Assembly (NCBI GenBank): GCA_964495425.1
Contig: CAZBVG010000003.1
Coordinates: forward strand, 64,518-128,517
Source: an uncultured Candidatus Saccharibacteria bacterium
GTDB lineage: Bacteria; Patescibacteriota; Minisyncoccia; Phycocordibacterales; UBA6065
Direction of reading: 5' to 3'
Length of the DNA stretch: 64,000 bases
Shown here: one piece after another, positions 4,143 to 39,354 of the stretch
Position numbering within the stretch: position 1 is the first letter of the stretch
Layout of the letters: each line of letters starts with the position of its first letter
Notes under the pieces: generated by a model
The model's input: the letters and a program-made list of their open reading frames with translations, nothing else
Told to the model about the DNA's origin: nothing
The model's database searches: none
Position numbers and translations under genes: made by a program

Positions 4143-4355
4143 GGGTGTAAGTATACCCAAAAAAGGCTCAAAAACAAGATTCTGTGTCTCTATACGACGC
4201 GGCTCGAACCTATTTTCAAGGACAGTCGATGCCGTGACCCCTCGGGGAATCGAACTGGAGTGGGTATCCCCAGAGGTATCCCCGCCTGGGGATACCCTGT
4301 CGTCCTGATCGGTGGTTGCAGGCCTTCGCGGCGTCGAGTTTTCCACAGCGGCAGC

Positions 4356-4426
4356 TCCCCCCGACTGGTTGCTCGTATCAGCGACCACGGGTTTACGGCT
4401 TCACCACGCGCTTTCTTCCGGTCGAG
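4356..4426. repeat. Left 71-bp terminal inverted repeat (IR-L)
   Basis: tccccccgactggttgctcgtatcagcgaccacgggtttacggcttcaccacgcgctttcttccggtcgag equals the reverse complement of 5870-5940 at 71/71 positions. Confidence 0.85.
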
Positions 4427-4437
4427 GTGACGGGTCT

Positions 4438-4466
4438 TTGCGCGCCATGCGCGACACTGGTATGAT
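4438..4466 (+). promoter_or_regulatory. Sigma70-like promoter TTGCGC-17-TATGAT directly upstream of the recombinase ATG (likely leaderless transcript)
   Basis: -35 ttgcgc at 4438-4443; 17-nt spacer; -10 tatgat at 4461-4466. The ATG at 4475 is only 9 nt after the -10 element, and there is no room for an SD sequence. Confidence 0.35.
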
Positions 4467-4474
4467 GCGCACGC

Positions 4475-5986
4475 ATGGCAGCAGACACGAAATATTTCAT
4501 ATACCTCCGAAAATCGACAGACCGTGACGACATGCAGACTCTCTCGATAGAGTCGCAGCGTGACGAGCTAACCGAGTTCGTAAAGCGACTAGATCTAAAC
4601 GTCGTCGGTGAATTCGAGGATCGCAGGTCAGCGAAGCGCCCTGGCCGGCCCGAATTTAGCGAAATGCTTCGGAGGATCGAGCGGGGCGAAGCCAACGGCA
4701 TCGTCGCCTGGGCGCCCGACCGTCTCTCACGCAACGCGCGCGACGGCGGAACCATCATCGACATGCTCGACACCGAGACGCTCACCGATCTCAAGTTTCC
4801 GACGTTCTGGTTCGAGAACACCGCGCAGGGCCGCCAGATGCTCGCGAACGCGTTCATCCAATCGAAATACTACGTCGACGACCTGAGCCAGAACACCAAG
4901 CGCGGACTCAGGAAGAAGGTGCGCCTAGGCATTTGCCCGACCTTTGCGCCCGTCGGGTATCTCAACGATCTGAAAACGAAGCAGTGGGTGGTGGACGAGA
5001 CTCGCCGTGGCGCGATTGTTTCGCTCTTCGAACTTCACGCAACCGGTGAGAGCACCCTTGAACAGGACCGCGCTTATCTCGACTCAATAGGGTTCAAGAT
5101 GCGGCCGACCAAGAAGAACCCCGACGGTCGGCCGATAAGCCGCACAGAGGTGGCCATGATCCTGCACGAACCGGCATACTACGGCCATTTCATGTATTGC
5201 GGCGAGCTGCACGAGGGAAAGCACCAGCCGATCATCTCGAAGACGCTCTATGATCGCGTGCAGGAGGTATTCGCGCAGCACTGGCCATCCCTCCCCAAGC
5301 AGCGCCGCGACAAGCCGTATCTCGGCCTTTTGAAGTGCGCTGAATGCGGCGGCGCAATCACCGCAGAGGTCCAGAAAGGCCACGTGTATTATCGTTGCAC
5401 GAAAAAGAGCAAAAACGTTCGGTGCTCTCAGCCGTTCCTGCGAGGCGAAGACCTCGACGCGGAAGTAGCCTCGGTGATTGCACCGTATGGCCTAACCGCT
5501 GAAGCCGGCGCGGACATGCTGGCGAGGCTCGACCAGGAAGAGGGGGCGTCGAAGGCGACGCGCAAAGCCACAATCGAGCGCCTGCAAAACGCGGCCGCGC
5601 AGGTTACCCGAAGCATCAATATGCTCCTAGACATGGTCCTCTCCGGCGAGATCAGTCGCGACATCTTCACGGGTAAGAAGGCGACACTTCTGAGCGAGAA
5701 GAGGCTCTTGGAGGAACAGATTGCCGCGGTCTCCAAAGGCCGCATACCATGGCTCGAACCGATGCGTAACTGGGTTTTCACCGCTCTACAGGTAGGCGAA
5801 ACTGCCACTGTTGGCACGCCGAACCAGCGTCGCGCTCTCGCCTCAGAAATCTTCGGCTCGAACCTTGTTCTCGACCGGAAGAAAGCGCGTGGTGAAGCCG
5901 TAAACCCGTGGTCGCTGATACGAGCAACCAGTCGGGGGGATACACTGGTGCCCTCAGCAGGAATCGAACCTACATCTTCTCCTTAG
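4475..5986 (+). CDS. Large serine recombinase (resolvase-domain N-terminus + recombinase domain + zinc ribbon)
   Basis: YLRKSTDRDDMQTLSIESQ carries the catalytic-Ser motif of the resolvase/invertase fold. DRLSRN is present. Central recombinase domain. Zinc ribbon C-x2-C...YYRC-x11-C (KCAECGG...YYRCTKKSKNVRCS). A coiled-coil tail follows. 503 aa. Confidence 0.85.
   Translation: MAADTKYFIYLRKSTDRDDMQTLSIESQRDELTEFVKRLDLNVVGEFEDRRSAKRPGRPEFSEMLRRIERGEANGIVAWAPDRLSRNARDGGTIIDMLDTETLTDLKFPTFWFENTAQGRQMLANAFIQSKYYVDDLSQNTKRGLRKKVRLGICPTFAPVGYLNDLKTKQWVVDETRRGAIVSLFELHATGESTLEQDRAYLDSIGFKMRPTKKNPDGRPISRTEVAMILHEPAYYGHFMYCGELHEGKHQPIISKTLYDRVQEVFAQHWPSLPKQRRDKPYLGLLKCAECGGAITAEVQKGHVYYRCTKKSKNVRCSQPFLRGEDLDAEVASVIAPYGLTAEAGADMLARLDQEEGASKATRKATIERLQNAAAQVTRSINMLLDMVLSGEISRDIFTGKKATLLSEKRLLEEQIAAVSKGRIPWLEPMRNWVFTALQVGETATVGTPNQRRALASEIFGSNLVLDRKKARGEAVNPWSLIRATSRGDTLVPSAGIEPTSSP
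5870..5940. repeat. Right 71-bp terminal inverted repeat (IR-R), overlapping the recombinase 3' end
   Basis: Exact reverse complement of 4356-4426; ends 5 nt before the CCA end of tRNA-Arg. Confidence 0.85.
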
Positions 5987-6020
5987 GACGGAGCTGCTCT
6001 ATCCATTGAGCTATGAAGGC
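5946..6020 (-). tRNA. tRNA-Arg (anticodon CCT), CCA encoded
   Basis: Reverse complement GCCTTCA-TA-GCTC-AATGGATA-GAGC-A-GCTCC-GTCCTAA-GGAGA-AGAT-GTAGG-TTCGATT-CCTGC-TGAGGGC-A-CCA. Anticodon-stem pair 27-43 is a G.A mismatch. Confidence 0.8.
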
Positions 6021-15535: not shown

Positions 15536-16231
15536 ATGGCTTTAATACAGACAAAAAACCTCATAAAGACTTTCAAGAACGGAGACAAGGAGACCCGTGT
15601 TCTTAAGGGTATTGATTTTACTGCGGATGAAGGAGAATTCATTGCTATTATGGGTCGTTCTGGTGCAGGAAAATCTACGTTTATGTACCAAATATCGCTC
15701 TTGGATGAGCCATCATCGGGAGAGATTGTGGTATTTAATAAAAATACGCACGATATGACGCACGAGGAAAAAACCAAGTTTCGTCTTAATGAGCTTGGAT
15801 ATGTGTTTCAAGATTATGCGCTTCTACCTGATCTTACAGCTATCGAAAATGTAGCAGTGCCACTTATGATGCAGGGTAAGTCAAAGACTGATGCATATGT
15901 CTATGCCCGTGTATCACTGGAACGCGTTGGACTTGGCCACAGACTTGATAACCTTCCGTCGCAAATGTCAGGGGGTGAACAGCAGAGAACATCGATTGCT
16001 CGTGCGCTCGCTCATAAACCACGAGTTCTCTTTGCTGATGAACCAACCGCAAACCTTGATAATGAATCATCACTTGCCATCATGAAGTTGTTTGAGGATG
16101 TACATAAGCAAGGTCAAACAATTATCATGGTTACCCACGAAGAGGAATACGCAAAGCTCGCCACTCGTGTCGTTCGACTAAATGATGGAATGATAATTGA
16201 AGATGTGAAAGGGAAGCACGCTTCTCTCTAA
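15536..16231 (+). CDS. ABC transporter ATP-binding protein (MacB/LolD-like)
   Basis: Walker A GRSGAGKST, signature LSGGEQQR, Walker B VLFADEPT, H-loop VTHE. Start trimmed to MALIQTKNLIKTF. Confidence 0.85.
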   Translation: MALIQTKNLIKTFKNGDKETRVLKGIDFTADEGEFIAIMGRSGAGKSTFMYQISLLDEPSSGEIVVFNKNTHDMTHEEKTKFRLNELGYVFQDYALLPDLTAIENVAVPLMMQGKSKTDAYVYARVSLERVGLGHRLDNLPSQMSGGEQQRTSIARALAHKPRVLFADEPTANLDNESSLAIMKLFEDVHKQGQTIIMVTHEEEYAKLATRVVRLNDGMIIEDVKGKHASL

Positions 16232-16662
16232 GCTGTGAATCCTCTGCGCGCGCGTTTAAGATCAACGAATACCATCGCAACCAAAGCGAGGATAATAACG
16301 TTTTTGATGATGTATTGACCTTCGAGTGAAGGTGTTAAAAATCCATCCCAAGTGATTTCTGGAAGAAAGAAGAGAGGTAGGAGGGTGGTAAGCATGTGAG
16401 GAAGAAGAAGGAGTGTCGCAACCTTTTCCATTCGTGGAATTACAAAGAGGATTCCGATTAGCACCTCAAAACCTCCAAACAATACAATAAACTTATCCGC
16501 TGTTAAGAATGGAATAACAAGACCGAGTGTGTGGTTAAAGAGTTCGGTGACGAGGGGTCCTGCTGGTGAGAGACCGAGTAGTTTTAAAGACCCAAACCAG
16601 ACAAAGACAATAAATAACGCGATATGAGCGAATACAAACGCTGTGTGTTCTTTCTTTTGCAT
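16228..16662 (-). CDS. DoxX-like small polytopic membrane protein
   Basis: Four predicted TM helices in 144 aa; DoxX-like hydrophobic profile. Confidence 0.35.
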   Translation of the reverse strand: MQKKEHTAFVFAHIALFIVFVWFGSLKLLGLSPAGPLVTELFNHTLGLVIPFLTADKFIVLFGGFEVLIGILFVIPRMEKVATLLLLPHMLTTLLPLFFLPEITWDGFLTPSLEGQYIIKNVIILALVAMVFVDLKRARRGFTA

Positions 16663-16680
16663 AACTTTATCGTATCACGA

Positions 16681-17601
16681 TTATTTTGCGTGTAGGTGGA
16701 TATAGATATCCTCAAGCGCTTTGACCGCATCTCCGGCAGCAATATTGTTCTGATGGTACAGACCATCGGTACAGTCTCCTGCGGCCCATATACCCTTAAT
16801 TGAGGTGCTCTGAGTGCGTGGATCGACTTTGATCTTGCCTATGGCATCCATGTCTACAAGACCCTTTGCAAAGTCTGTAGAAGGCGTAGAGCCGATTTCA
16901 ACAAAAATACCAGACACCGCAAGCTCTTTTGCTTCACCGGATTCTTTGTCCGTGTATATGAGTGATTTTACAAATTTTCCACCTCTCACTTCGGTTGGGA
17001 TCGCGTTGGTAAGTGCATGCATCTTTGGGTTAGTAAGCACTTTCTTTACGGTTATTGGATCTGCTCTGAATTCATCACTTCGATTAAGGAGTGTCACTGA
17101 TTTACAGTATGCAAGGAGCTGTGAAGCTGATTCAAATGCAGCATTTCCTCCACCGATGACAGCCACATCCTGTCCGGCAAACACTGGTCCATCACAAGAC
17201 GCGCAATATGTAATACCTTTATGTTCAAAGATGTCCGCGCCGGTTATAGTAAGTTTTTTGCGGTGACTACCTGTTGCGATTAGGATGGTTTTGGCTTTGT
17301 ATGTCGCTCCTTCAGTTGCTATTTCGAATCCATTGTTTGTTTGAGAGATCTTTTTGCAATATTCTCCCGTTTTTACATCAACAATACCGTCTGCGTACGC
17401 ACGAAGGTGTCCCTCTAGGCTTTTCGCAAAATCAGCGCCTGAGATTTTTATAGTACCAATCCAGTTTTCAATGCCTTCAGAGACGGTTGATTGGCTTTCC
17501 CAGTCTTTAGTTATAAACACAGTTTTAAGACGCTTACGTGAAGCGTATACACCCGCTGCAACACCCGCGGGTCCTCCTCCAATGATTGCAAGATCATACA
17601 T
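16681..17601 (-). CDS. trxB: Thioredoxin-disulfide reductase
   Basis: MYDLAIIGGGPAGVAAGVYA (FAD Rossmann motif), redox-active CASCDG, and a second GGGNAAFESA NADPH-binding motif. 306 aa. Confidence 0.85.
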   Translation of the reverse strand: MYDLAIIGGGPAGVAAGVYASRKRLKTVFITKDWESQSTVSEGIENWIGTIKISGADFAKSLEGHLRAYADGIVDVKTGEYCKKISQTNNGFEIATEGATYKAKTILIATGSHRKKLTITGADIFEHKGITYCASCDGPVFAGQDVAVIGGGNAAFESASQLLAYCKSVTLLNRSDEFRADPITVKKVLTNPKMHALTNAIPTEVRGGKFVKSLIYTDKESGEAKELAVSGIFVEIGSTPSTDFAKGLVDMDAIGKIKVDPRTQSTSIKGIWAAGDCTDGLYHQNNIAAGDAVKALEDIYIHLHAK

Positions 17602-22281: not shown

Positions 22282-22878
22282 TTATTTCGGGGTTGCTACT
22301 AATGTGCTGCTTGCGTATGTTCCGGGAACCACATCAAGCTTGTGAATCGGCAGAAGTCTAATAATAGGCCTACCCACAAGATCTTTTTTAGGTAGTGGTC
22401 CCCAAACGCGTGAATCAGAGCTGACAAGCCGGTTATCTCCCATGACGAAGTATTCATCAGGGCCAAGTGTTGTGTTTACACTTCCAAAAGTTTTTGAATG
22501 GATATAGGGCTCATTCAAGGTAATGCCTTCTGGATGTTCTTTGTTTGTTACAACAACACTGTCGTTTGCAATCGCAATGGTTTCACCAGGAAGGCCGATG
22601 AGACGCTTAATAAAATACTTTGAGGGATTTTGAGGATATTTAAAAATGAGGACTTCACCACGTTCTGGTTCGCGGAATCGATACGTGAGTTCGTCGACAA
22701 TAAGGTACTCGCCGTCCTTAAATGTGGTGTCCATCGATGAACCGCTCACAACAAAAGGTTGAGCAATCCACATACGGACCGGGACTACAATAACGAGTGC
22801 AATTGCCGCGTATGTAATGAGCTCCTTAAAGAAAGAACTCTGCTTGGTCGGGGTCGGGTTCGCGGCTGGTGTGTCCAT
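22282..22878 (-). CDS. lepB: Signal peptidase I
   Basis: Catalytic Ser in GSSMDTTFKDGEY, KRLIGLPGETI (catalytic Lys box), and GDNRLVSSDSRVWGP. N-terminal TM anchor. Start trimmed to MDTPAAN. Confidence 0.8.
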   Translation of the reverse strand: MDTPAANPTPTKQSSFFKELITYAAIALVIVVPVRMWIAQPFVVSGSSMDTTFKDGEYLIVDELTYRFREPERGEVLIFKYPQNPSKYFIKRLIGLPGETIAIANDSVVVTNKEHPEGITLNEPYIHSKTFGSVNTTLGPDEYFVMGDNRLVSSDSRVWGPLPKKDLVGRPIIRLLPIHKLDVVPGTYASSTLVATPK

Positions 22879-23016
22879 GAATGAGGCTATAAAAATGTAA
22901 AGGTAGACAAAGTATATTCCCGAGTATGCCGTTGACGCAAGGGTTTTTTGATGTTTCTTTGCGCGAAGTTGCCATTTCAAATTTTCGTGGTAATGTGTCG
23001 AAAGATTATTGCAACC

Positions 23017-30359: not shown

Positions 30360-30459
30360 AAAAAGAAGTTCCCTGGATTTGGTTGTAGAGTGACTGTTCC
30401 GGCTTCTAATGCTACCCGGTGTGACTCGATTGTCAATCGAAGTCCAAAAGCACTATAAT

Positions 30460-30993
30460 ATGTACATGTTTTCAGATCCCCGTCATAATATTGATCAACT
30501 ACACATTTCTCCAAATCAAATAGTGGTTGATATGGGAGCAGGTTCAGGTCACCACGCTCTGTGGGCAGCAAAAGCAGTTGCTCCGAACGGGCGAGTGGTC
30601 GCTGTTGATATACAAAGAGATCTTCTCGGGCGTCTTCAAAAAGAAGCACAAAAAAATCATATAAGAAATCTCGAGGTGGTTTCTGGTGATCTTGAAATGT
30701 TACGGGGAACAAATCTTCGTGACGGTTTTTGTGATGTGGTTATCGCCTCAAATATTCTCTTTATGATTAAAAACAAAAAAGTGTTTTTAGAGGAAGCGAA
30801 AAGAATATTAAAGCCTCGGGGAAGACTTTTGGTTATAGACTGGACGGGTTCATTTTCAAGCATGGGACCACATTCAGATCATGTATTGTATAAGGATGAC
30901 TGCGTAAAACTTGTAAAAAGTGTTGGATTTGAACAGGAAGAAGAAATACATGCTGGCTCCCATCATTATGGTATAATTTTCCGCAAGCCCTAA
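30460..30993 (+). CDS. Class I SAM-dependent methyltransferase
   Basis: Motif I VVDMGAGSGHHA, acidic motif II VVAVDIQ, and motif IV-like VVIASNIL. The overlapping antisense ORF 30356-30712 was rejected. Confidence 0.7.
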   Translation: MYMFSDPRHNIDQLHISPNQIVVDMGAGSGHHALWAAKAVAPNGRVVAVDIQRDLLGRLQKEAQKNHIRNLEVVSGDLEMLRGTNLRDGFCDVVIASNILFMIKNKKVFLEEAKRILKPRGRLLVIDWTGSFSSMGPHSDHVLYKDDCVKLVKSVGFEQEEEIHAGSHHYGIIFRKP

Positions 30994-30997
30994 GCAT

Positions 30998-32296
30998 ATG
31001 ACCCGTTTTCAACTTATATTCACCGGTATACTCGTGACTCTTGGCATCGCGGGAGTTATTGTGTTCGCAACGTTTAAAAATTCAGGAGAAAAGACTGCGC
31101 CCCGTGTTGTGATGTGGGGAACGCTTAAGTCTGAATATGTAAACACATTCCTTTCGGAGGTAATGCTCAAGAAGAAGGATACGATTAATGTTTCTTATAT
31201 CGAAAAGAGGTCTGATACATTTGAAGATGATCTCATCGCCGCCCTTGCTCGTGGCGCGGGTCCAGATATGGTACTTTTGCCGCAGGACCTAATTGTAAAG
31301 CAGCTCGATAAATTTTATATAACCCCGTACGAGAATTACTCTGAGAGAACATTTAAGGATTCGTTTATTCAAGAAGGTGAGTTGTATTTGATGCCAACGG
31401 GTATTGTAGGTTTTCCTTTCGCGGTTGACCCAATGGTTATGTATTGGAATAAAGATTTATTTGCAGCCGTAGATGCAGCGCTTCCACCGACATCATGGAC
31501 AGAGTTTTTTGGTCTCGTGCCAAAACTTACTAAGAAAGATGAGACAGGAAATATTAGCCAGAGCCTTGTTGCGTTTGGTGAAGTTCGGAATGTAACACAC
31601 GCAAAAGATATTATTTCACTTCTTGCGATTCAGGCAGGTACACCTATCGTCACGCGAGGACAGCAGGGTAATCTTGCAAGTGTATTCAATACTCGAAATT
31701 CATCAGGGTTAGTACCGGGCGAGCAGGCGGTTTCATTCTTTACTGAATTTTCTAATCCTGTTAAGGGATCATATTCGTGGAACAGAGCACTTTCAAATGA
31801 TCGAAGTTCATTTATTGCCGGCAAGCTTGCCTTGTATTTTGGTTATGCGAGTGAATTGGTGGGTATTCGTGACGCGAATCCAAATCTTAATTTTGATGTT
31901 ACGGTAGTGCCACAGACTACAGCGACACTTGCGGGTACCGCACGAAAAATGACGTTCGGTAATATGAACGGAGTGGCAATTCTTAAATCATCGAGAAATG
32001 TGGGGGCGGCATTTACGGCTGCGGTGAATCTCACAAATACAGATGCCCAGACATTGTGGGTTGAGAAATCCGGCTATCCTCCGGTAAGACGAGATCTACT
32101 AACAAAACTCCCTGGAGACGCATATATGGCAACGTTCTACCGTAGTGCGTTGGTTTCAAATGCATGGCTTGATCCAGATCGTGAGGGCACGGATTCGGTG
32201 TTTATGAAATTAGTGGAAAATATTACATCGGGTAGGCAGAGGGTAAGCGCGGCAGTAACAACAGCAAGTGTCGAAATTGATAATTTCATCCGCTAA
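30998..32296 (+). CDS. Extracellular solute-binding protein-like (SBP family 1), membrane anchored
   Basis: N-terminal TM anchor, then a two-lobe periplasmic-binding-protein-like sequence (VVMWGTL..., GAGPDMVLLPQD, SWTEFF). No cognate permease is adjacent. Stop is 3 nt before the first pilin-like gene. Confidence 0.45.
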   Translation: MTRFQLIFTGILVTLGIAGVIVFATFKNSGEKTAPRVVMWGTLKSEYVNTFLSEVMLKKKDTINVSYIEKRSDTFEDDLIAALARGAGPDMVLLPQDLIVKQLDKFYITPYENYSERTFKDSFIQEGELYLMPTGIVGFPFAVDPMVMYWNKDLFAAVDAALPPTSWTEFFGLVPKLTKKDETGNISQSLVAFGEVRNVTHAKDIISLLAIQAGTPIVTRGQQGNLASVFNTRNSSGLVPGEQAVSFFTEFSNPVKGSYSWNRALSNDRSSFIAGKLALYFGYASELVGIRDANPNLNFDVTVVPQTTATLAGTARKMTFGNMNGVAILKSSRNVGAAFTAAVNLTNTDAQTLWVEKSGYPPVRRDLLTKLPGDAYMATFYRSALVSNAWLDPDREGTDSVFMKLVENITSGRQRVSAAVTTASVEIDNFIR

Positions 32297-32299
32297 TTT

Positions 32300-32809
32300 A
32301 TGAGAAAAATTACTCTTATTAAGGTTCTCTTTGTTGTCACATTGCTTGTTTGCCTCATGCCGTCCATTTCTTTTGCGCAAAATATTCCTACTAACCCTTC
32401 CGTAAGAACCGGGGCAGATGGTGGAACTGGTAGTAACGATCCAGTTGATGTCGATTTTCAGTTTGTGACCTGTTCAGGAGTGGATGATCCAAGAACTCCA
32501 CAAAAGGAGAGGGAGTGTACATTTGAAGATATTATTCTTACTGCACGCAGAATTATTTATTTTGCGCTCTTTATGATTACGCCTATTCTTGTGGCGATGC
32601 TTGTATATACGGGATTTAAGTACATGACCGCAGGAGGTGATGTAAACCTAATTGCTGATGCTAAACGAATGCTTAAACCTGTTATCTATGGACTAATTCT
32701 GGTATTTGCAGCATGGCTTATTGTGTATACCCTATTGGGAAAGTTGCTCGCATTAAATATAAATGATGTATCAAAAGACTCCATTGTTCCGTCATCAATT
32801 AGATATTAA
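32300..32809 (+). CDS. VirB2/TrbC-like (T4SS-pilin-like) two-helix small secreted membrane protein, paralogue 1
   Basis: Signal peptide (LLVCLMPSISFAQ), loop, helix 1, YTGFKYMTAGGD, then AKRMLKPVIYGLILVFAAWLIVYTLL. Same architecture as the four paralogues downstream. Confidence 0.45.
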   Translation: MRKITLIKVLFVVTLLVCLMPSISFAQNIPTNPSVRTGADGGTGSNDPVDVDFQFVTCSGVDDPRTPQKERECTFEDIILTARRIIYFALFMITPILVAMLVYTGFKYMTAGGDVNLIADAKRMLKPVIYGLILVFAAWLIVYTLLGKLLALNINDVSKDSIVPSSIRY

Positions 32810-32813
32810 AAAT

Positions 32814-33227
32814 ATGAAAAATAAATTTTTCGTTACCTTGTGCTTACTTGCAGTGTTTCTTCCTTCTATTGTTTTTGCGCAGGGTGGAAGTAGTCAGGGT
32901 GGTGCGGGCGGAAGTTCACAAGGTGGTGCGGGCGGAAGTAGTCAGCCGGTTAATGTGGGCATACCAAATCCTCTTGGTGAGATAGATAGTTTGGCCGAGC
33001 TAGTTTTTAAGATAGTTGAGTTTGTTATAAGTTTTAGTTACGTAATCATCGCTTTCTTTATTATTCTTTCTGGTTTTAAATTTGTATTAGCTCAAGGGAA
33101 TGAGGAAAAACTTACAGAGGCAAAACAGATGTTGAAATATACAATTATTGGAGCATTTCTTGTGATAGGTGCACAAATAATTGTTGAGGTGCTAAAAGAC
33201 GTGTTGACTCAAATTGCCTCCTCATAA
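32814..33227 (+). CDS. T4SS-pilin-like two-helix protein, paralogue 2 (with GGSSQ/GGAGG tandem repeat)
   Basis: Signal peptide and (GGSSQGGAG)x2.5 repeat, then helix 1 IIAFFIILSGFKFVLAQGNEEKLTEAKQMLKYTIIGAFLVIGAQIIVEVL. Confidence 0.45.
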   Translation: MKNKFFVTLCLLAVFLPSIVFAQGGSSQGGAGGSSQGGAGGSSQPVNVGIPNPLGEIDSLAELVFKIVEFVISFSYVIIAFFIILSGFKFVLAQGNEEKLTEAKQMLKYTIIGAFLVIGAQIIVEVLKDVLTQIASS

Positions 33228-33231
33228 ATAA

Positions 33232-33265
33232 AAAAGTCCGGCTGTGAGGCCGGACTTCGCAATAA
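33232..33265. terminator. Bidirectional terminator (gtccggc-tgtgag-gccggac)
   Basis: 7-bp GC stem flanked by A6 and T-rich sequence, between paralogue 2 (+) and the minus-strand coiled-coil gene. Confidence 0.55.
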
Positions 33266-33271
33266 AGAACT

Positions 33272-34345
33272 TCAGAGGTTACTACCCAATGTGTATCTTG
33301 GTGAGAGTTTTGAGACCACCATTGGTTCGAATTTTGATACAAACTGTACCTGCGTGTTTGCACGCATGTGTGCTCGAGTGATCGGGCGGTCGACGATGCG
33401 AATCTTGTTGTCATCAACCAACTGTATCTCAACACCCGGTTTTTCGTCCCACTCGACTTGGTTTCTCAGTACATCCATAATTGGATATTTCATTGAAACC
33501 TCGCCGGCTGCATACTGATATCCTGTCCACTTACCACGTGAGTCAACTTTTACGATCGCGACTTTTGGTCCTGATACTGGAGTTGGAGGAGTGGAAACGG
33601 TAGGGGTAGACGCGATTGCCACAGAAGCTTTCTTTTCGGAAAGTTTCTGTGATAGATTCGCGATCTGTTCAGCCAAATCTTTTCGGCTGGATGACTGTGT
33701 GCCCAATTCCGTCTTCACTTCTTTGATGAGATTTTCGACACCGCTGTCGATATCATCCTGACGGAGACTGATACTTGTTAGTTTGTTTTCAAGTACTGCG
33801 ATCTTGCCGCATAGTTCGAGAACAGTTTTCTTGTGGAGATCAAGCTCAGTTGTGGTCTCCGAGTCTGATTTCCTTGAGCGAGCAATCATCATCTCCAGTC
33901 TGTCGACCTGATGTACTAGGTCGACATACTTTTGTTGTGAGTCACTGAGACTAGTGTCCACAACAGTGTTGTCAGAGTTCCAGAGCTGAGAAATAAATTT
34001 CCTACCCGTGGATTTTTCTGCAATGAGTATGATGATCACCACACCCGCGGCGATGAGAAAGAAGTTGAAAACTTGTAGAGTCAACGAGCGCTTCGGTGCC
34101 ACCGCCGATGTTATCGGGGTGGATGACGAAACCTTGTGGCTCTTTGTCGTCGTCTTCTTGGACATCTTCGTGGCCCGGGTGGCATTTTTCTTTGCCTCAC
34201 GACCAGTATAGTAGTTACGAATTCTTGTGGACATCCAGATCCAACCTTTCATCCACACACCGGGTCCTTTTGTGGGTGGCGGGGGCGGATTACTTGATGG
34301 TGGGGTATTCGCTGAAGAAGCTGTCGGTTTTGCAGGAGTTGTCAT
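33272..34345 (-). CDS. Membrane-anchored coiled-coil protein with Pro/Thr-rich N-terminus and C-terminal beta domain (hypothetical)
   Basis: 357 aa. Pro-rich N-terminus (PPSSNPPPPPTKGP), a TM (FNFFLIAAGVVIIILIA), long heptad-like segments, and a C-terminal beta-rich domain. Embedded in the pilin-like cluster. Confidence 0.4.
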   Translation of the reverse strand: MTTPAKPTASSANTPPSSNPPPPPTKGPGVWMKGWIWMSTRIRNYYTGREAKKNATRATKMSKKTTTKSHKVSSSTPITSAVAPKRSLTLQVFNFFLIAAGVVIIILIAEKSTGRKFISQLWNSDNTVVDTSLSDSQQKYVDLVHQVDRLEMMIARSRKSDSETTTELDLHKKTVLELCGKIAVLENKLTSISLRQDDIDSGVENLIKEVKTELGTQSSSRKDLAEQIANLSQKLSEKKASVAIASTPTVSTPPTPVSGPKVAIVKVDSRGKWTGYQYAAGEVSMKYPIMDVLRNQVEWDEKPGVEIQLVDDNKIRIVDRPITRAHMRANTQVQFVSKFEPMVVSKLSPRYTLGSNL

Positions 34346-34572
34346 TGAGAACCTTTCTGTTTGTTGTTGATTGTTGGGTGTATATCAAAGTACCTATTTA
34401 AAGTATTACATAAAATTATAGATTTGTCAATATATAAAGAGGTATGAAAAGCTCTTAGTACGGCCGTATAAATGGTCGGAGTGTCGTGTCTGTGGGTTGT
34501 ATTTGTTGTATAATGAATGAAAGCAACTTTTGAGAACCTATCAGAGGTGCTATTTATTACATAAGTAAACAT

Positions 34573-35022
34573 ATGAAAAGGAAATTAACGTTTGGGAAAG
34601 TACTAACTTTTACGGTGGCACTTTGCCTTATGGCGGCATTCGTAGCACCGATTGTCGTAAGCGCAGCACCAGCAACAAATACACAAGCTGGCGCGTGTGG
34701 AAATCTTACTAACACAGGTTTGAAGGGTGTTGTCGGCTGTATTATTGAGATTCTAAATACAGTTGTAGGTCTTCTAATTGCGGGTGGAGTTGTGTATACA
34801 GTCTATGGTGCTTTTCAAATGGTTCAAAGCGAGGAGAAGAGAGATGAAGGAAAGCAAAGAATTTACCACGGTATTATAGGTCTTTTCATAATGGTTTCAA
34901 TTTGGGGGTTGGTGAATATTCTTACTTCAACATTTAATTTGATTGGTACTCCTGTTGCCGCACCTGTTATTCAGGCACCCGCTGGAACAGGTGATGTGCC
35001 AGGTTTTGACGGTTCGTCCTAG
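34573..35022 (+). CDS. T4SS-pilin-like two-helix protein, paralogue 3
   Basis: Signal peptide AAFVAPIVVSAAPA, Cys pair, then LLIAGGVVYTVYGAFQMVQSEEKRDEGKQRIYHGIIGLFIMVSIWGLVNILTSTF. Confidence 0.45.
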   Translation: MKRKLTFGKVLTFTVALCLMAAFVAPIVVSAAPATNTQAGACGNLTNTGLKGVVGCIIEILNTVVGLLIAGGVVYTVYGAFQMVQSEEKRDEGKQRIYHGIIGLFIMVSIWGLVNILTSTFNLIGTPVAAPVIQAPAGTGDVPGFDGSS

Positions 35023-35120
35023 TTTTATCCCCATTGCCCTGTATCTATCGATATTTCCTGGTATAATAGGGAAGTACAGGCATTTAACAGCATTATTTAA
35101 GAGTTTTTTAGTAACTTAGT

Positions 35121-35489
35121 ATGAAAAAATTAGTCTATACCGCAGCTTTGTCACTTGCGCTTCCTCTTACGGCAGCAGCACAGGTTTCAAATCTCGAAGA
35201 CGTATTTCAGTTTATTAACAACCTCCTCAATACACTTCTTCCGCTTATCATCGCGGCAGCAGTTGTATACTTCATTTATGGTATCGCTCGCTACGTTATG
35301 GCAGGTGATGAGGATGCAAAGGCAGCAGCAAAGGACAAGATCATCTACGGTGTGATCGGCCTCTTTGTGATGGTATCTGTATGGGGACTCGTAAACATCC
35401 TTACAAATACTTTCTTCGGCGGTAGCGTTACGAATGCTGTGCCTTCTAACGTAAACGATCAGATTCCTGACGTAGACGTTGACCTCTAA
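35121..35489 (+). CDS. T4SS-pilin-like two-helix protein, paralogue 4
   Basis: Signal peptide ALPLTAAAQ, then LIIAAAVVYFIYGIARYVMAGDEDAKAAAKDKIIYGVIGLFVMVSVWGLVNILTNTF. Confidence 0.45.
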   Translation: MKKLVYTAALSLALPLTAAAQVSNLEDVFQFINNLLNTLLPLIIAAAVVYFIYGIARYVMAGDEDAKAAAKDKIIYGVIGLFVMVSVWGLVNILTNTFFGGSVTNAVPSNVNDQIPDVDVDL

Positions 35490-35500
35490 TCTTTAGAGAG

Positions 35501-35743
35501 ATGAATATTCCGGCGGTCCAAAAATTCTTTGAGCTTGTAGTCAATCCAATTGTACAATTGATGTTTGCGCTTGCTGTGGTTTATTTCATCTACGGAGTAT
35601 TCACATATATTCGTAAGTCAGATGATTCAGATGGAAGACTTACGGGAGGAAGACATATTCTCTGGTCTACCGTCGGACTCTTTATAATGGTATCTGTCTG
35701 GGGCATAATCGCTGTACTCAGAAGCACTATCGGAGTCAATTAA
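35501..35743 (+). CDS. T4SS-pilin-like two-helix protein, paralogue 5 (no cleavable signal peptide)
   Basis: 80 aa: LMFALAVVYFIYGVFTYIRKSDDSDGRLTGGRHILWSTVGLFIMVSVWGIIAVL. Shares the GLF(I/V)MVS(I/V)WG motif. Confidence 0.4.
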   Translation: MNIPAVQKFFELVVNPIVQLMFALAVVYFIYGVFTYIRKSDDSDGRLTGGRHILWSTVGLFIMVSVWGIIAVLRSTIGVN

Positions 35744-35810
35744 ATCACTATAGAAAAGAAAAAAGGAGTCGGGACGTATGTCTCGACTCCTTTGCTATTG
35801 AAAGAACACT

Positions 35811-36317
35811 CTAATGCCACCAATTTATGATCCACTCTTTTGCCTCTGTCGTTTCGCGGGTTACCCGAAACGATAGATACTCTGGCTTATAAGCCCCCCA
35901 GTCCGTTAAGTGAGGAGTCTCTTCGACCAGGTTACCCTGGCCGTCGTTTACTTTTATCACTTTTCCCGCGCGATTGTAGATCTTGAACCGAAGGCCGTCG
36001 AGATCGTTTAGGAAGCGAATCTTTCGGCCACGAATCGGTATCATTTCCACGGCTTCACCCGGCTTGATGATATTAGGTCTTGCTGCCTGGTAAAGTGTTC
36101 TGGTCGTTTGGACCGGATCACCTACATAGACATGTCCTTGTGACGACGTGGTAGGGGGGTCGCCATTAACTGCGGTCTCACTCCACTTCGTTGCCAGCAA
36201 TCTGCCCGCCATGTTAAACAGCAGAAGGATTGCGAAGAGGACTGCGAGCGTTTTCCCGAGCTTGTTAAGGCCCGTGAAATCGATTTTTCCTCTGACGTGA
36301 CCTGTAGTAGTGCTCAC
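35811..36317 (-). CDS. Membrane-anchored beta-rich protein, possible NfeD-like partner of the upstream SPFH-like gene
   Basis: N-terminal TM (LAVLFAILLLFNMAG) and a C-terminal beta-strand-rich (OB-like) domain. Overlaps the SPFH-like gene stop by 4 nt, which suggests an operon. Confidence 0.3.
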   Translation of the reverse strand: MSTTTGHVRGKIDFTGLNKLGKTLAVLFAILLLFNMAGRLLATKWSETAVNGDPPTTSSQGHVYVGDPVQTTRTLYQAARPNIIKPGEAVEMIPIRGRKIRFLNDLDGLRFKIYNRAGKVIKVNDGQGNLVEETPHLTDWGAYKPEYLSFRVTRETTEAKEWIINWWH

Positions 36318-37435
36318 TTTGATTTTCCTTGATTTTTTGAGTTATCACGTTGGCCGAACACAGCGGTTAGGCCACCGACCATTTTGTCTCCTTCACCGAC
36401 GCCGTTCACGATGATTTCTTGGCGCGTGAGGTTGCCTTCCTGTGCCTGAACCATACGGAGCGCTTCGGTTGGATCGAGATCCTTACCCATGGCCTTGAAC
36501 TGGGCAACGAGCTTTACAGCGCGCTTTCCCTGTTCCTCCATGTCCCGTTTTTGAGCCTTTGATTTTGCCGCTTCCTTCATCTCCTCTTCCATTGCGCGCA
36601 AAATTTCGGTATTGGTTGGCAGGATTTCCGTATTCAATACATCAATAACCTTGACCCCTGATTCCGTTTGGAATTCGCGGTCGATAGCCTTTGAAATATT
36701 GAAATCTTTAGGCATCTCGTTGCTAGCATCTTCGGCGTTACCTGCGACTGCATCAATTCCATCTTTCTCTTCGAGAGATATAACACGCTCACGCATGTCT
36801 ACTGACTCTTGATCCATAAAGGGCCAAGGAAGCCAGTGGATACCTTCATCAAGAAAGATTCGTTGACGTCTGCCGAGGAGCGTTAAGACTCCCATATGGG
36901 CAATGTCTATCCTGTTGAAACTTGCGATAAACATTCCTATTGCGATTCCCATCACACAAAGTGATGGAAAAAAGGGTAGGTCGAGCACTACGAATGGAAT
37001 TACTATGCCCATAAAAAGGGTAAAAATAATTCCGAGTAGAATCGACTGCCAAGGCTTGATCGAAGTTTTGACTTCGTTCAGCGTACCCTTACGCAGGCAT
37101 TCGGCAACCACGCTACTCATTTCGAGCTTAAGACCCATGAGGGCATTGAGCTCAATTTTTGAAGCGAGATGGCGCGAGACAGCAGATGAGAGTGCCACGA
37201 TAGTTTTTTCGACAATCAATGACCCTCCCATGTTGAGATACGTATATGGGTCAACGACCCTGTATCGTATCGCTTGTTGGATTTTGACCTGGGCGGAGCC
37301 GAGATCTTCGTAAGGATTTCCTTTCTTTCCAGACTTATCCTTCGAACCCTTCGAAGGCGGGACGGGTGTGCTAGGCACACTTGATTGAGGACGAGGTTGT
37401 GCCTTCGTCGCAGGCACGGTTTTGGTTTTAGCCAT
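36314..37435 (-). CDS. SPFH/band-7-like membrane protein with atypical domain order
   Basis: Band-7-like signature AIRYRVVDPYTYL lies N-terminal to three or four TM helices. A second SPFH-like stretch (RIFLDEGIHWLPWPFMDQESVDMRERVISLEEKDGIDAV) and an E/K-rich coiled-coil follow. Confidence 0.35.
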   Translation of the reverse strand: MAKTKTVPATKAQPRPQSSVPSTPVPPSKGSKDKSGKKGNPYEDLGSAQVKIQQAIRYRVVDPYTYLNMGGSLIVEKTIVALSSAVSRHLASKIELNALMGLKLEMSSVVAECLRKGTLNEVKTSIKPWQSILLGIIFTLFMGIVIPFVVLDLPFFPSLCVMGIAIGMFIASFNRIDIAHMGVLTLLGRRQRIFLDEGIHWLPWPFMDQESVDMRERVISLEEKDGIDAVAGNAEDASNEMPKDFNISKAIDREFQTESGVKVIDVLNTEILPTNTEILRAMEEEMKEAAKSKAQKRDMEEQGKRAVKLVAQFKAMGKDLDPTEALRMVQAQEGNLTRQEIIVNGVGEGDKMVGGLTAVFGQRDNSKNQGKSK

Positions 37436-38290: not shown

Positions 38291-38719
38291 ATGAAACAAC
38301 ATATCGTAAGAGCGTTTTCAGTGGTTTTTATCCTGTTTGCATTTGCGCAGACTGTTTTCGGTCAAGAGGTTTTCAAGCTCAGAATTGGCGAGGAGTTAAT
38401 CCTTGTCGCAAGCACAGATGGAACACCGCCACTTACCTTTGTTTGGTATAAGGACGGGGTGGATACAGGTGTTACAACTGCTAAGTATGTGGTCAACTCG
38501 GTGACACCTCAGGATGCCGGAACGTACTCGGTTAAGGCAAGTAATTCCGCTGGTTCAGCTATCTCTCCGACAGTAATTTGTCGAATGGTTGTTTTGCCTA
38601 AAAAAGCAGTGGACACCTACGAGGTGCTGCTCAGTTGGCTTGAGTTAAGGAAAGATTTTGCACGGGCAAGTCTATGGAGACGGCCGCTCATAGCTAGAAC
38701 ACAAGGAGGGCGGATATGA
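38291..38719 (+). CDS. Secreted protein with eukaryote-like immunoglobulin I-set domain
   Basis: Signal peptide (AFSVVFILFAFAQTVFG). ILVASTDGTPPLTFVWYKDGVDTGVTTAKYVVNSVTPQDAGTYSVKASNSAGSAISPTVI matches the I-set pattern (WxKDG ... DxGxYxC-like) with the Cys positions substituted. Overlaps the next gene by 4 nt. Confidence 0.5.
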   Translation: MKQHIVRAFSVVFILFAFAQTVFGQEVFKLRIGEELILVASTDGTPPLTFVWYKDGVDTGVTTAKYVVNSVTPQDAGTYSVKASNSAGSAISPTVICRMVVLPKKAVDTYEVLLSWLELRKDFARASLWRRPLIARTQGGRI

Positions 38720-39354
38720 ATAAAGTCTATTTATCTGTCTTCCTTTTTATTGTTACGCCTGCATTCGCGATGACGTATCGGATTATTAACCTGGCGGTGC
38801 AACAGGTGTCAGACACAAAGGTTGTGCTTACATGCACGGTACCCAAGCCAAAAAGTGGGACTGCGCCTGTAACACAAATCGAGCTACGTATCGATGATGC
38901 TGCAATTACGGCGAAGAATTATCATCAAGCAACGATAGTTCAGGTGGTGAATAATCCCGGAGTTGCGTCTGCTCCTGTTACATTTACGGTGGCTGGTCTT
39001 CAGTCAAACACTACATACTATTTCGCGTGCAGAGCTTTTGATACGGAATGGAATGAGGTGTCGAATTATTCGCTCGTTAAAACAAGTCCGCCCAGCAAAA
39101 AGACTCAGGTCAACAAGACCATACGAGTAAACCTGAATTATAGGGAGGATGATACTGGGGAAATACCTGATGCGGTAGTCGTGTTTCACGGCTCCACGAG
39201 GGGACTTATGGAAAAACCACTCGTAGTAAAGGGTAACGTCCGCTATGTGGATATCACCGGCTTAAAGCAAGGTGACGTTCATTATTGGCAGGTTGTTACG
39301 GTGAGCACCGATGGTGAGACCAACGAAAATCCCGTGCGATCTGACAGTAGATAA
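38716..39354 (+). CDS. Secreted fibronectin type III-like domain protein
   Basis: Signal peptide (LSVFLFIVTPAFA). FN3-like strand pattern (VVLTCTVPKP...LQSNTTYYFACRAFD). A second beta-sandwich-like C-terminal half. Confidence 0.4.
   Translation: MNKVYLSVFLFIVTPAFAMTYRIINLAVQQVSDTKVVLTCTVPKPKSGTAPVTQIELRIDDAAITAKNYHQATIVQVVNNPGVASAPVTFTVAGLQSNTTYYFACRAFDTEWNEVSNYSLVKTSPPSKKTQVNKTIRVNLNYREDDTGEIPDAVVVFHGSTRGLMEKPLVVKGNVRYVDITGLKQGDVHYWQVVTVSTDGETNENPVRSDSR

Follow-up and report, generated by a model that had tools for sequence, protein, structure and literature searches.

A conserved array of five T4SS_pilin family genes in operon with a solute-binding protein gene in Paceibacteria

Patescibacteria depend on host cells, and their type IV secretion system (T4SS) with its arrays of VirB2-like pilins is essential in the one species tested. 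What does such an array do when it follows the gene of a solute-binding protein (SBP) and lies apart from any T4SS gene? This question is raised by positions 30998-35743 of a 64-kb stretch of DNA (hereafter the window, to which all positions refer unless another locus is named), part of a metagenomic scaffold from Paceibacteria (Parcubacteria; Patescibacteria, or candidate phyla radiation, CPR). By their titles, both the nearest homologues and the loci in synteny belong to Candidatus Paceibacterota, Parcubacteria, Patescibacteria or Taylorbacteria. On the plus strand, a 432-aa SBP gene is followed by five small open reading frames (ORFs) of 169, 137, 149, 122 and 80 aa, here called copies 1 to 5. 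The initial annotation had proposed them as a cluster of pilin-like genes, and all five are real, at the positions listed in Table 1. The start of copy 2 is placed at 32814 (MKNKFF), which is backed by its orthologues; the longer form given by the ORF finder starts at 32763. Searching all six frames of the window with a profile built from the five proteins yielded these five alone (E = 1e-32 to 1e-55), and the next-best match had an E-value of 1.2.

The proposed assignment to the T4SS_pilin family proved correct. In a Pfam HMM search, all five proteins score above the PF18895 gathering score (28.9–52.4 bits versus 26.6), covering 83–96% of the profile (59–68 of 71 positions) with whole-protein E-values of 5.6e-14 to 1.2e-6. 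Since all five exceed the threshold, we consider membership of PF18895 established. The same does not apply to VirB2/TrbC proper (PF04956), which had also been suggested, as the matches are sub-threshold: copies 1, 2 and 4 reach 15.5, 19.3 and 21.0 bits, short of the 27.9 required, and no match is obtained for copies 3 and 5. Copy 4 additionally reaches NCBIfam NF045849, the Mbov_0395 pilin-like conjugal transfer protein, with 40.6 bits against a cutoff of 40; the other four copies remain below it (copies 3 and 5 at 30 and 29 bits). Of the 203 homologues retrieved from the database with copy 4, almost all were already annotated as PF18895, and several carry the NCBI name 'pilin [Candidatus Paceibacterota]'. 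No match to copy 4 was obtained by tblastn against 72,556 plasmids.

A hydropathy scan bears out the predicted topology. Copies 1–4 have a signal peptide followed by two hydrophobic helices, and copy 5 consists of two helices only. The signal peptides end at Ala-x-Ala-like sites (SFA, VFA, VSA and AAA in copies 1 to 4), as expected for a cleavable peptide preceding a two-helix hairpin. Modelling copy 4 with AlphaFold2 (116 sequences) revealed a signal-peptide helix, followed by helices at residues 25–60 and 64–98 that form a hairpin with a pLDDT (predicted local distance difference test) of ~90. When the five-member profile was compared with PDB sequences, only chance matches to G-protein-coupled receptors or designed proteins were returned (E >= 0.26).

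Some of the sequence features first described for the five proteins require revision. The near-identical second helix, GLF(I/V)MVS(I/V)WG, is present in copies 3–5 but not in copies 1 and 2, where the corresponding stretches read GLILVFAAWLIV and GAFLVIGAQIIV, respectively. A cysteine pair was correctly described for copy 3 but is not confined to it, as copy 1 has one as well (C58, C73), and both pairs are kept in orthologues. The GGSSQGGA repeat of copy 2 was found as described and corresponds to 2.7 tandem copies of a 24-nt unit at 32882-32945. We also considered whether the fifth protein could be a VirB3 homologue. This was ruled out, as it is a paralogue of copy 4 (39–45% identity) and as hhalign of the pilin profile with VirB3 of Agrobacterium tumefaciens (pTiC58) was insignificant (E = 0.21).

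Comparing the array with related loci reveals positional orthology for each of the five copies. In two relatives with long contigs (L003 and L005), the same five-gene series follows the SBP gene. All-against-all comparison places each copy far closer to the genes at the same position in other genomes than to its own neighbours, with cross-genome same-position scores of 76–155 bits versus at most 73 bits, and mostly less than 55, within a genome. Copy 4, for example, is 57–68% identical to its orthologues. We therefore refer to the copies as types. Across 15 loci their order is always type 1, 2, 3, 4, 5, with type 3 at times duplicated or moved, and complete metagenomic arrays mostly comprise 5–7 genes. 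In all, the fixed order is seen in more than 60 related loci. Each type also keeps features of its own. Type 1 orthologues retain the cysteine pair, and those of type 3 retain Cys-x13-Cys at the start of helix 1. In type 2, different low-complexity repeats occupy the same place and are followed by an NP(L/V)G motif, while type 4 orthologues have no extension. Type 5 orthologues measure 81–94 aa, are devoid of a signal peptide and come last in every complete array examined. Extra type-3-like genes lie upstream of the methyltransferase and SBP genes in some relatives (L003 5144-5611; L009 5192-5677; L012 807-1828, minus strand), one of which has two extra copies there on the opposite strand. These additional or relocated genes suggest that type 3 is the mobile or duplicating member of the set. 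Between orthologues, the hairpin core is kept and the stretch from signal peptide to helix 1 is hypervariable in types 1–3, which fits outward-facing termini as in VirB2 pili. The pattern argues for five ancient orthologue groups that form a stable set of specialised subunits with outward N-termini, and against recent paralogues or an antigenic-variation cassette.

The latter idea deserves consideration, as the initial annotation had interpreted the divergence of the copies as possible antigenic variation. In this scenario the copies would be variable paralogues that serve antigenic or host-range variation, comparable to the amplified trwL genes of the Bartonella Trw T4SS. Identity of the other copies to copy 1 is indeed low (13–30%), copy 2 bears its tandem repeat, exposed regions are hypervariable even between orthologues, and the possibility has been raised for Patescibacteria arrays in published discussion (PMC12102498). 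Multiple variable tandem pilin genes are likewise found in trwL, which is thought to broaden binding to host surfaces (PMC12857230). However, trwL copies are part of the T4SS operon and result from lineage-specific amplification, whereas the types described here are ancient and individually conserved. They keep their position and their specific features across genomes whose GyrA is 60–94% identical, and there is no sign of recent duplication or gene conversion. With the closest relatives of each copy found at the same position in other genomes and the order fixed, we abandon the earlier proposal and consider antigenic variation very improbable.

How does the array compare with those known from the phylum? 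Quinonero-Coronel et al. (2025) applied PF18895 and further VirB2 profiles to 3,035 Patescibacteria genomes (PMC12102498). They detected VirB4 in 2,417 of the 3,035 assemblies, and VirB2-like pilins in 1,948 VirB4-positive assemblies, near virB4 in 1,135 (PMC12102498). The 441 pilin arrays reported comprise 2–11 genes with a mean identity of 25%, an array being defined as at least two genes that match a VirB2-type profile (i-Evalue < 0.001, >50% profile coverage) in tandem or with one non-pilin gene between them (PMC12102498). With five genes and one intervening gene, the window array falls exactly within this definition and is thus the same kind of array as already described for the phylum. 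It shares with the 441 arrays, and with the six-gene array of Candidatus Southlakia epibionticum ML1, the PF18895 family, divergent tandem copies and the combination of signal peptide and two helices. Like the published arrays, it is chromosomal, may be split by one non-pilin gene and is not accompanied by a relaxase, no relaxase domain being found in the window or 10 kb either side. On the pilins themselves, the locus therefore adds nothing categorically new. For S. epibionticum, the six-pilin array has been described as essential in a 2025 review (PMC12857230), and in metatranscriptomes of Patescibacteria cultures T4SS-pilin genes belong to the unknown genes with the highest expression (PMC10936435). 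Unlike the published arrays, the one described here does not lie in or near a T4SS locus, is in operon with a methyltransferase and an SBP gene, and consists of five types in fixed order, the last of which has no signal peptide.

We favour the interpretation that the five genes encode subunits of a T4SS-dependent filament or channel, and assign it a probability of roughly 0.6. We infer Sec export, signal-peptidase cleavage, filament assembly and T4SS dependence from what is established for VirB2 pilins and from published work on Patescibacteria; any role of the SBP is likewise inferred. Types 1–4 would be exported by Sec and their signal peptides cut after the Ala-x-Ala-like sites, while type 5 would insert without one. 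All five would then end up as two-helix hairpins in a pool in the cytoplasmic membrane, from which a VirB4/VirB6-type T4SS encoded elsewhere most likely draws them into a surface filament or channel. Its core would consist of a single abundant subunit, for which type 4 is the best candidate, in combination with specialised subunits, and the variable N-terminal extensions of types 1–3 would point outward and contact the host cell. The membrane-anchored, oligosaccharide-type SBP, presumably co-transcribed with the array, would probably work with this structure at the cell surface.

Several observations weigh against this interpretation. In agreement with the initial annotation, no VirB4, VirD4 or VirB6 domain was detected with Pfam among the ~50 ORFs of the window. 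Neither these nor VirB3 are found when 10 kb on either side are included; the surroundings covered amount to ~84 kb around the array, namely the window and 10 kb at each end taken from the parent scaffolds (131 kb, and a 166-kb version from a sister sample). The 20-kb contexts of six relatives equally contain no VirB4, VirD4, VirB6 or VirB3. Within this range the genes are thus not encoded together with virB3 and virB4, as VirB2/TrbC pilins are. In the part of the published table that is readable for Taylorbacteria, most rows are VirB4-positive, yet 2 of 6 are without detected VirB4 (PMC12102498). Moreover, no Patescibacterium has been observed to make a pilus of this family, and such a pilus has been called an 'intriguing possibility' (PMC12857230). 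Direct comparison with a known pilin is not favourable either: hhalign of the pilin profile with VirB2 of A. tumefaciens (pTiC58) yielded E = 0.15 and a probability of 0.4%. Superimposing the copy 4 model on the PDB by Foldseek returned a best E-value of 0.65, with an archaeal conjugative pilin in third place (E = 1.2), a search that we regard as uninformative because helical hairpins are too simple to discriminate.

In general design, the proteins nevertheless resemble VirB2/TrbC of the A. tumefaciens T-pilus, with which they share size, an N-terminal signal peptide and two hydrophobic helices connected by a short charged loop. Two AAAQ motifs come to lie in register in the hhalign alignment, insignificant as it is, that of the window proteins lying beside the predicted cleavage site. 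They differ from VirB2/TrbC in the absence of significant similarity, in the monoderm host and in having no adjacent virB3 or virB4.

A related possibility is that the five proteins make no extended pilus and instead stay in the membrane as accessory or channel subunits of a monoderm-type T4SS, lining or stabilising its translocon. Some Gram-negative systems need VirB2 although they do not produce a pilus. Type 5, with no signal peptide and almost no sequence outside the membrane, would suit such a role. The T4SS of Patescibacteria has its origin in MPF_FATA, a monoderm class without a conjugative pilus (PMC12102498). Also in line with this alternative is the score of copy 4 at the cutoff of NF045849. 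Mbov_0395, found in integrative conjugative elements of Mycoplasma, is a two-helix protein of 80 residues from a monoderm conjugation system, although, unlike the window genes, it is a single gene within a mobile element. However, the extensions of types 1–3 are long, hypervariable, repeat-rich and disulphide-bearing and look surface-exposed, the family has been reported as highly expressed (PMC10936435), and the array adjoins no translocon gene. We therefore regard a purely accessory role as unlikely, while the T4SS-dependent filament or channel remains our preferred reading.

The product of the gene immediately upstream of the array belongs to the SBPs by two Pfam families above threshold (Table 1) and has a MalE-like two-lobe fold. 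The AlphaFold model has a pLDDT of 89.8, and the hydropathy scan places a transmembrane segment at residues 6–24. A Foldseek search of the SBP is topped by manno-oligosaccharide-, cycloalternan- and maltodextrin-binding proteins (E ~1e-21), beta-1,2-gluco-oligosaccharide-binding proteins also being among the closest structures, and a PDB sequence match is 4r9f (E = 4e-11). The membrane anchor of the SBP (residues 1–27, 30998-31080) opens with the motif x(S/T)xFQ(L/I)(I/V), which persists even where overall identity falls to 44%. For a simple signal anchor such conservation, roughly equal to that of the globular domain, is unusual and, together with the FQ motif, suggests an intramembrane partner. 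A type IV pilin-like protein with a class III signal was ruled out for the SBP, as there is no Gly at -1 and no Glu at +5.

The SBP and pilin genes are closely coupled. As the initial annotation had noted, the SBP gene lies directly upstream of copy 1; the gap is only 3 nt, and in relatives the two genes overlap. The methyltransferase gene precedes the SBP gene with the same tight spacing. All 12 genome loci found with the SBP (SBP 57–77% and GyrA 85–94% identical) carry the block, and pilin genes follow the SBP gene in 10/10 of those with downstream sequence, the remaining two (L010, L018) ending at the SBP gene. The block also occurs in loci whose SBP is 46–47% identical, or which were reached through pilins of 43–49% identity. 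Among 80 metagenomic loci with an SBP of 39–64% identity, 71 extend 500 nt or more beyond the SBP gene, and in 68 of these 71 a pilin-like gene starts within 400 nt downstream on the same strand. In the metagenomic loci the methyltransferase gene adjoins the SBP gene in 54/60 and gyrA lies upstream in 39/40. The region as a whole, from gyrA through methyltransferase, SBP, pilins and SPFH to rbfA and infB, is syntenic across the clade, so that adjacency alone overstates the functional linkage. Spacings of 3–4 nt and gene overlaps are the stronger argument for a link between SBP and pilins. No ABC (ATP-binding cassette) permease or ATPase gene stands beside the SBP gene in the annotated contexts; the genome and metagenome loci found by BLAST and HMM were not screened for permeases. 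Where an SBP operon would include its cognate permease and ATPase, a methyltransferase gene is found upstream and pilin genes downstream, both in the window and in the annotated contexts, and the BLAST and HMM searches showed these neighbours in the genome and metagenome loci as well.

Could SBP and hairpin proteins then form a surface module of their own? They might act independently of VirB4, with the five proteins serving as a scaffold that keeps the SBP at the cell surface or as a non-canonical uptake pore supplied by it. We know of no precedent for a transporter built from two-helix pilins. The nearly invariant linkage and the translational coupling described above would be explained by such a module, as would the conserved anchor and FQ motif and the scarcity of partners nearby, neither T4SS genes nor, in the annotated contexts, ABC permease or ATPase genes being found. 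A precedent for SBPs assembled with pilin-like proteins is the Sulfolobus bindosome, in which sugar-type SBPs are tied, in genetic and functional terms, to the small pilin-like Bas proteins at the surface of a single-membrane cell (PMC2910488). However, the bindosome relies on pilin-like proteins of type IV with class III signal peptides and on the ATPase of a type IV pilus, whereas the SBP described here has no motif for class III cleavage and its small neighbours are of VirB2 type, which leaves an analogy only. Furthermore, clade-wide synteny may partly account for the adjacency, permeases could be encoded elsewhere, and in other classes the same pilin family is found within T4SS loci (PMC12102498). 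An autonomous module is thus distinctly unlikely in our view.

A variant that retains T4SS-type pilins is more specific. The methyltransferase, the SBP and the five VirB2-like proteins might constitute a single nutrient- or host-glycan-capture organelle of Paceibacteria, with the SBP riding on, or feeding, a VirB2-type filament or conduit. We put this forward as a speculative and rather doubtful idea. If correct, a solute-binding protein would for the first time be linked genetically to T4SS-type pilins, and there would be a concrete way to approach the idea that Patescibacteria use their essential T4SS for uptake from the host. Whatever the structure, a functional SBP link would point to uptake or host-glycan recognition as its job, and the SBP, as a soluble protein that can be expressed, lends itself to determination of its ligand. 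In a large clade of Paceibacteria, the five types form a stable set that is coupled to an orphan SBP of the oligosaccharide type and not to secretion ATPase genes. Our literature search found no paper mentioning an association of SBP and pilin arrays, and the operon coupling looks apparently unreported and modestly new. The fixed five-type architecture remote from any T4SS gene is modestly new as well.

Predicted expression signals are in line with a shared transcript for the upstream part of the array. The TATAAT of the promoter-like site upstream of the methyltransferase gene (Table 1) ends 6 nt before ATG 30466, the start that gives a methyltransferase of orthologue length (174–177 aa in relatives). 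This short distance suggests a leaderless mRNA, and the site may thus give rise to a leaderless or near-leaderless transcript of methyltransferase, SBP and pilin types 1 and 2. No recognisable Shine-Dalgarno sequence was found at any pilin gene or at the SBP gene. Between the convergent genes of pilin 2 and the coiled-coil protein lies a hairpin with a T-run after it for the minus strand and an A-run before it for the plus strand. Further promoter-like elements are a TATAAT at 34509-34514 upstream of type 3 and an extended -10 element (TGgTATAAT) ending at 35067 upstream of type 4. Taken together, the promoter-like sites and hairpins suggest a transcription unit comprising methyltransferase, SBP, type 1 and type 2 and another comprising type 3, possibly with types 4 and 5, which would have an additional promoter of their own.

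Table 1. Positions of the array genes, the genes next to them and the predicted expression signals in the window.
Feature	Position	Strand	Basis and remarks
Promoter-like site, TTGTCA-18 nt-TATAAT	30430..30459	+	Consensus scan, 11/12 matches; abuts methyltransferase ATGs 30460 and 30466
Small class I SAM (S-adenosylmethionine)-dependent methyltransferase	30466..30993	+	~175 aa; Pfam Methyltransf_31/11/25; mechanically called ORF from 30409
Solute-binding protein (SBP), 432 aa	30998..32296	+	SBP_bac_8 80.7 bits, SBP_bac_1 63.3 bits
Pilin-like type 1, 169 aa	32300..32809	+	PF18895 35.5 bits; signal peptide, variable extension, Cys pair (FQxVxC...EC), hairpin
Pilin-like type 2, 137 aa	32814..33227	+	PF18895 33.8 bits; signal peptide, low-complexity repeat extension, NP(L/V)G, hairpin
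10-bp G+C-rich hairpin, probable terminator	33234..33257		Terminator scan; RNAfold -17.6 kcal/mol
Bitopic 357-aa protein	33272..34345	-	No Pfam family above threshold
Pilin-like type 3, 149 aa	34573..35022	+	PF18895 35.3 bits; signal peptide, variable extension, Cys-x13-Cys, hairpin, Pro-rich tail
Pilin-like type 4, 122 aa	35121..35489	+	PF18895 52.4 bits (strongest); signal peptide directly followed by hairpin, acidic variable tail
Pilin-like type 5, 80 aa	35501..35743	+	PF18895 28.9 bits; hairpin alone, no signal peptide
14-bp hairpin, probable bidirectional terminator	35762..35793		RNAfold -23.4 kcal/mol; between convergent genes, after pilin 5
Two overlapping membrane-protein genes (168 aa, 373 aa), convergent with the array	35811..37435	-	Same position in all long relatives

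The array is interrupted between pilin copies 2 and 3 by a minus-strand gene for a charged coiled-coil membrane protein, as first described. The 357-aa protein has a basic Pro-rich N-terminus, one transmembrane segment (~90–108), a charged coiled-coil, a Pro-rich linker and a small beta-rich C-terminal domain. A search against 5.8e9 proteins found only the protein itself, and BLAST identified a homologue of 32% identity in the closest relative (L019), in which GyrA is 94% identical. Analogous minus-strand bitopic genes occupy the same gap of the array in L008 and L014. Overall, 5/64 arrays are interrupted by a minus-strand gene, which is bitopic in 4 of those 5. An assignment as IcmG/DotF was rejected (17.7 bits against a cutoff of 200), and Pfam and NCBIfam otherwise returned sub-threshold coiled-coil noise. 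The initial annotation had counted this gene as part of the cluster, but it is missing from most related arrays. It is a fast-evolving, lineage-specific insertion found in the closest relatives only and not a conserved component.

Downstream of the array, the larger of the two convergent membrane proteins has no Pfam match itself, but its positional orthologues in L022 and L021 pass the Pfam threshold for Band_7/SPFH, which identifies the 373-aa protein as a divergent member of this family. The other genes of the window are housekeeping genes, including lepA, a valS-type synthetase gene, ftsZ/ftsA, hisS, gyrA, cmk, infB, clpB, alr, topA, parB, dprA, serS and dnaX, together with 12 tRNAs. A lepB-type gene, in keeping with the inferred cleavage of the pilin signal peptides, is located at 22282-22980.

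Further genes in and near the window are worth recording. At 38291-39354 on the plus strand, two overlapping genes encode small secreted proteins, one of 142 aa with an Ig-like domain and one of 212 aa with an fn3-like domain. The pair is 79–83% conserved in the closest relative, and the proteins could be adhesins. A 1.85-kb island at 4150-5990 with 58–61% GC, within a genome of 43% GC, consists of a single gene for a large serine recombinase of 503 aa (4475-5986, plus strand), the 3' end of which overlaps tRNA-Arg(CCT) at 5946-6020 on the minus strand. The island looks like a minimal foreign integrative element or a remnant of one. Finally, ~4.5 kb past the window end, the sister scaffold L104 carries a reverse transcriptase gene (RVT_1) beside a bAvd gene at 15569-16989, a pair that is the signature of a diversity-generating retroelement; a 944-aa gene with PG_binding and cellulase domains lies near this pair.

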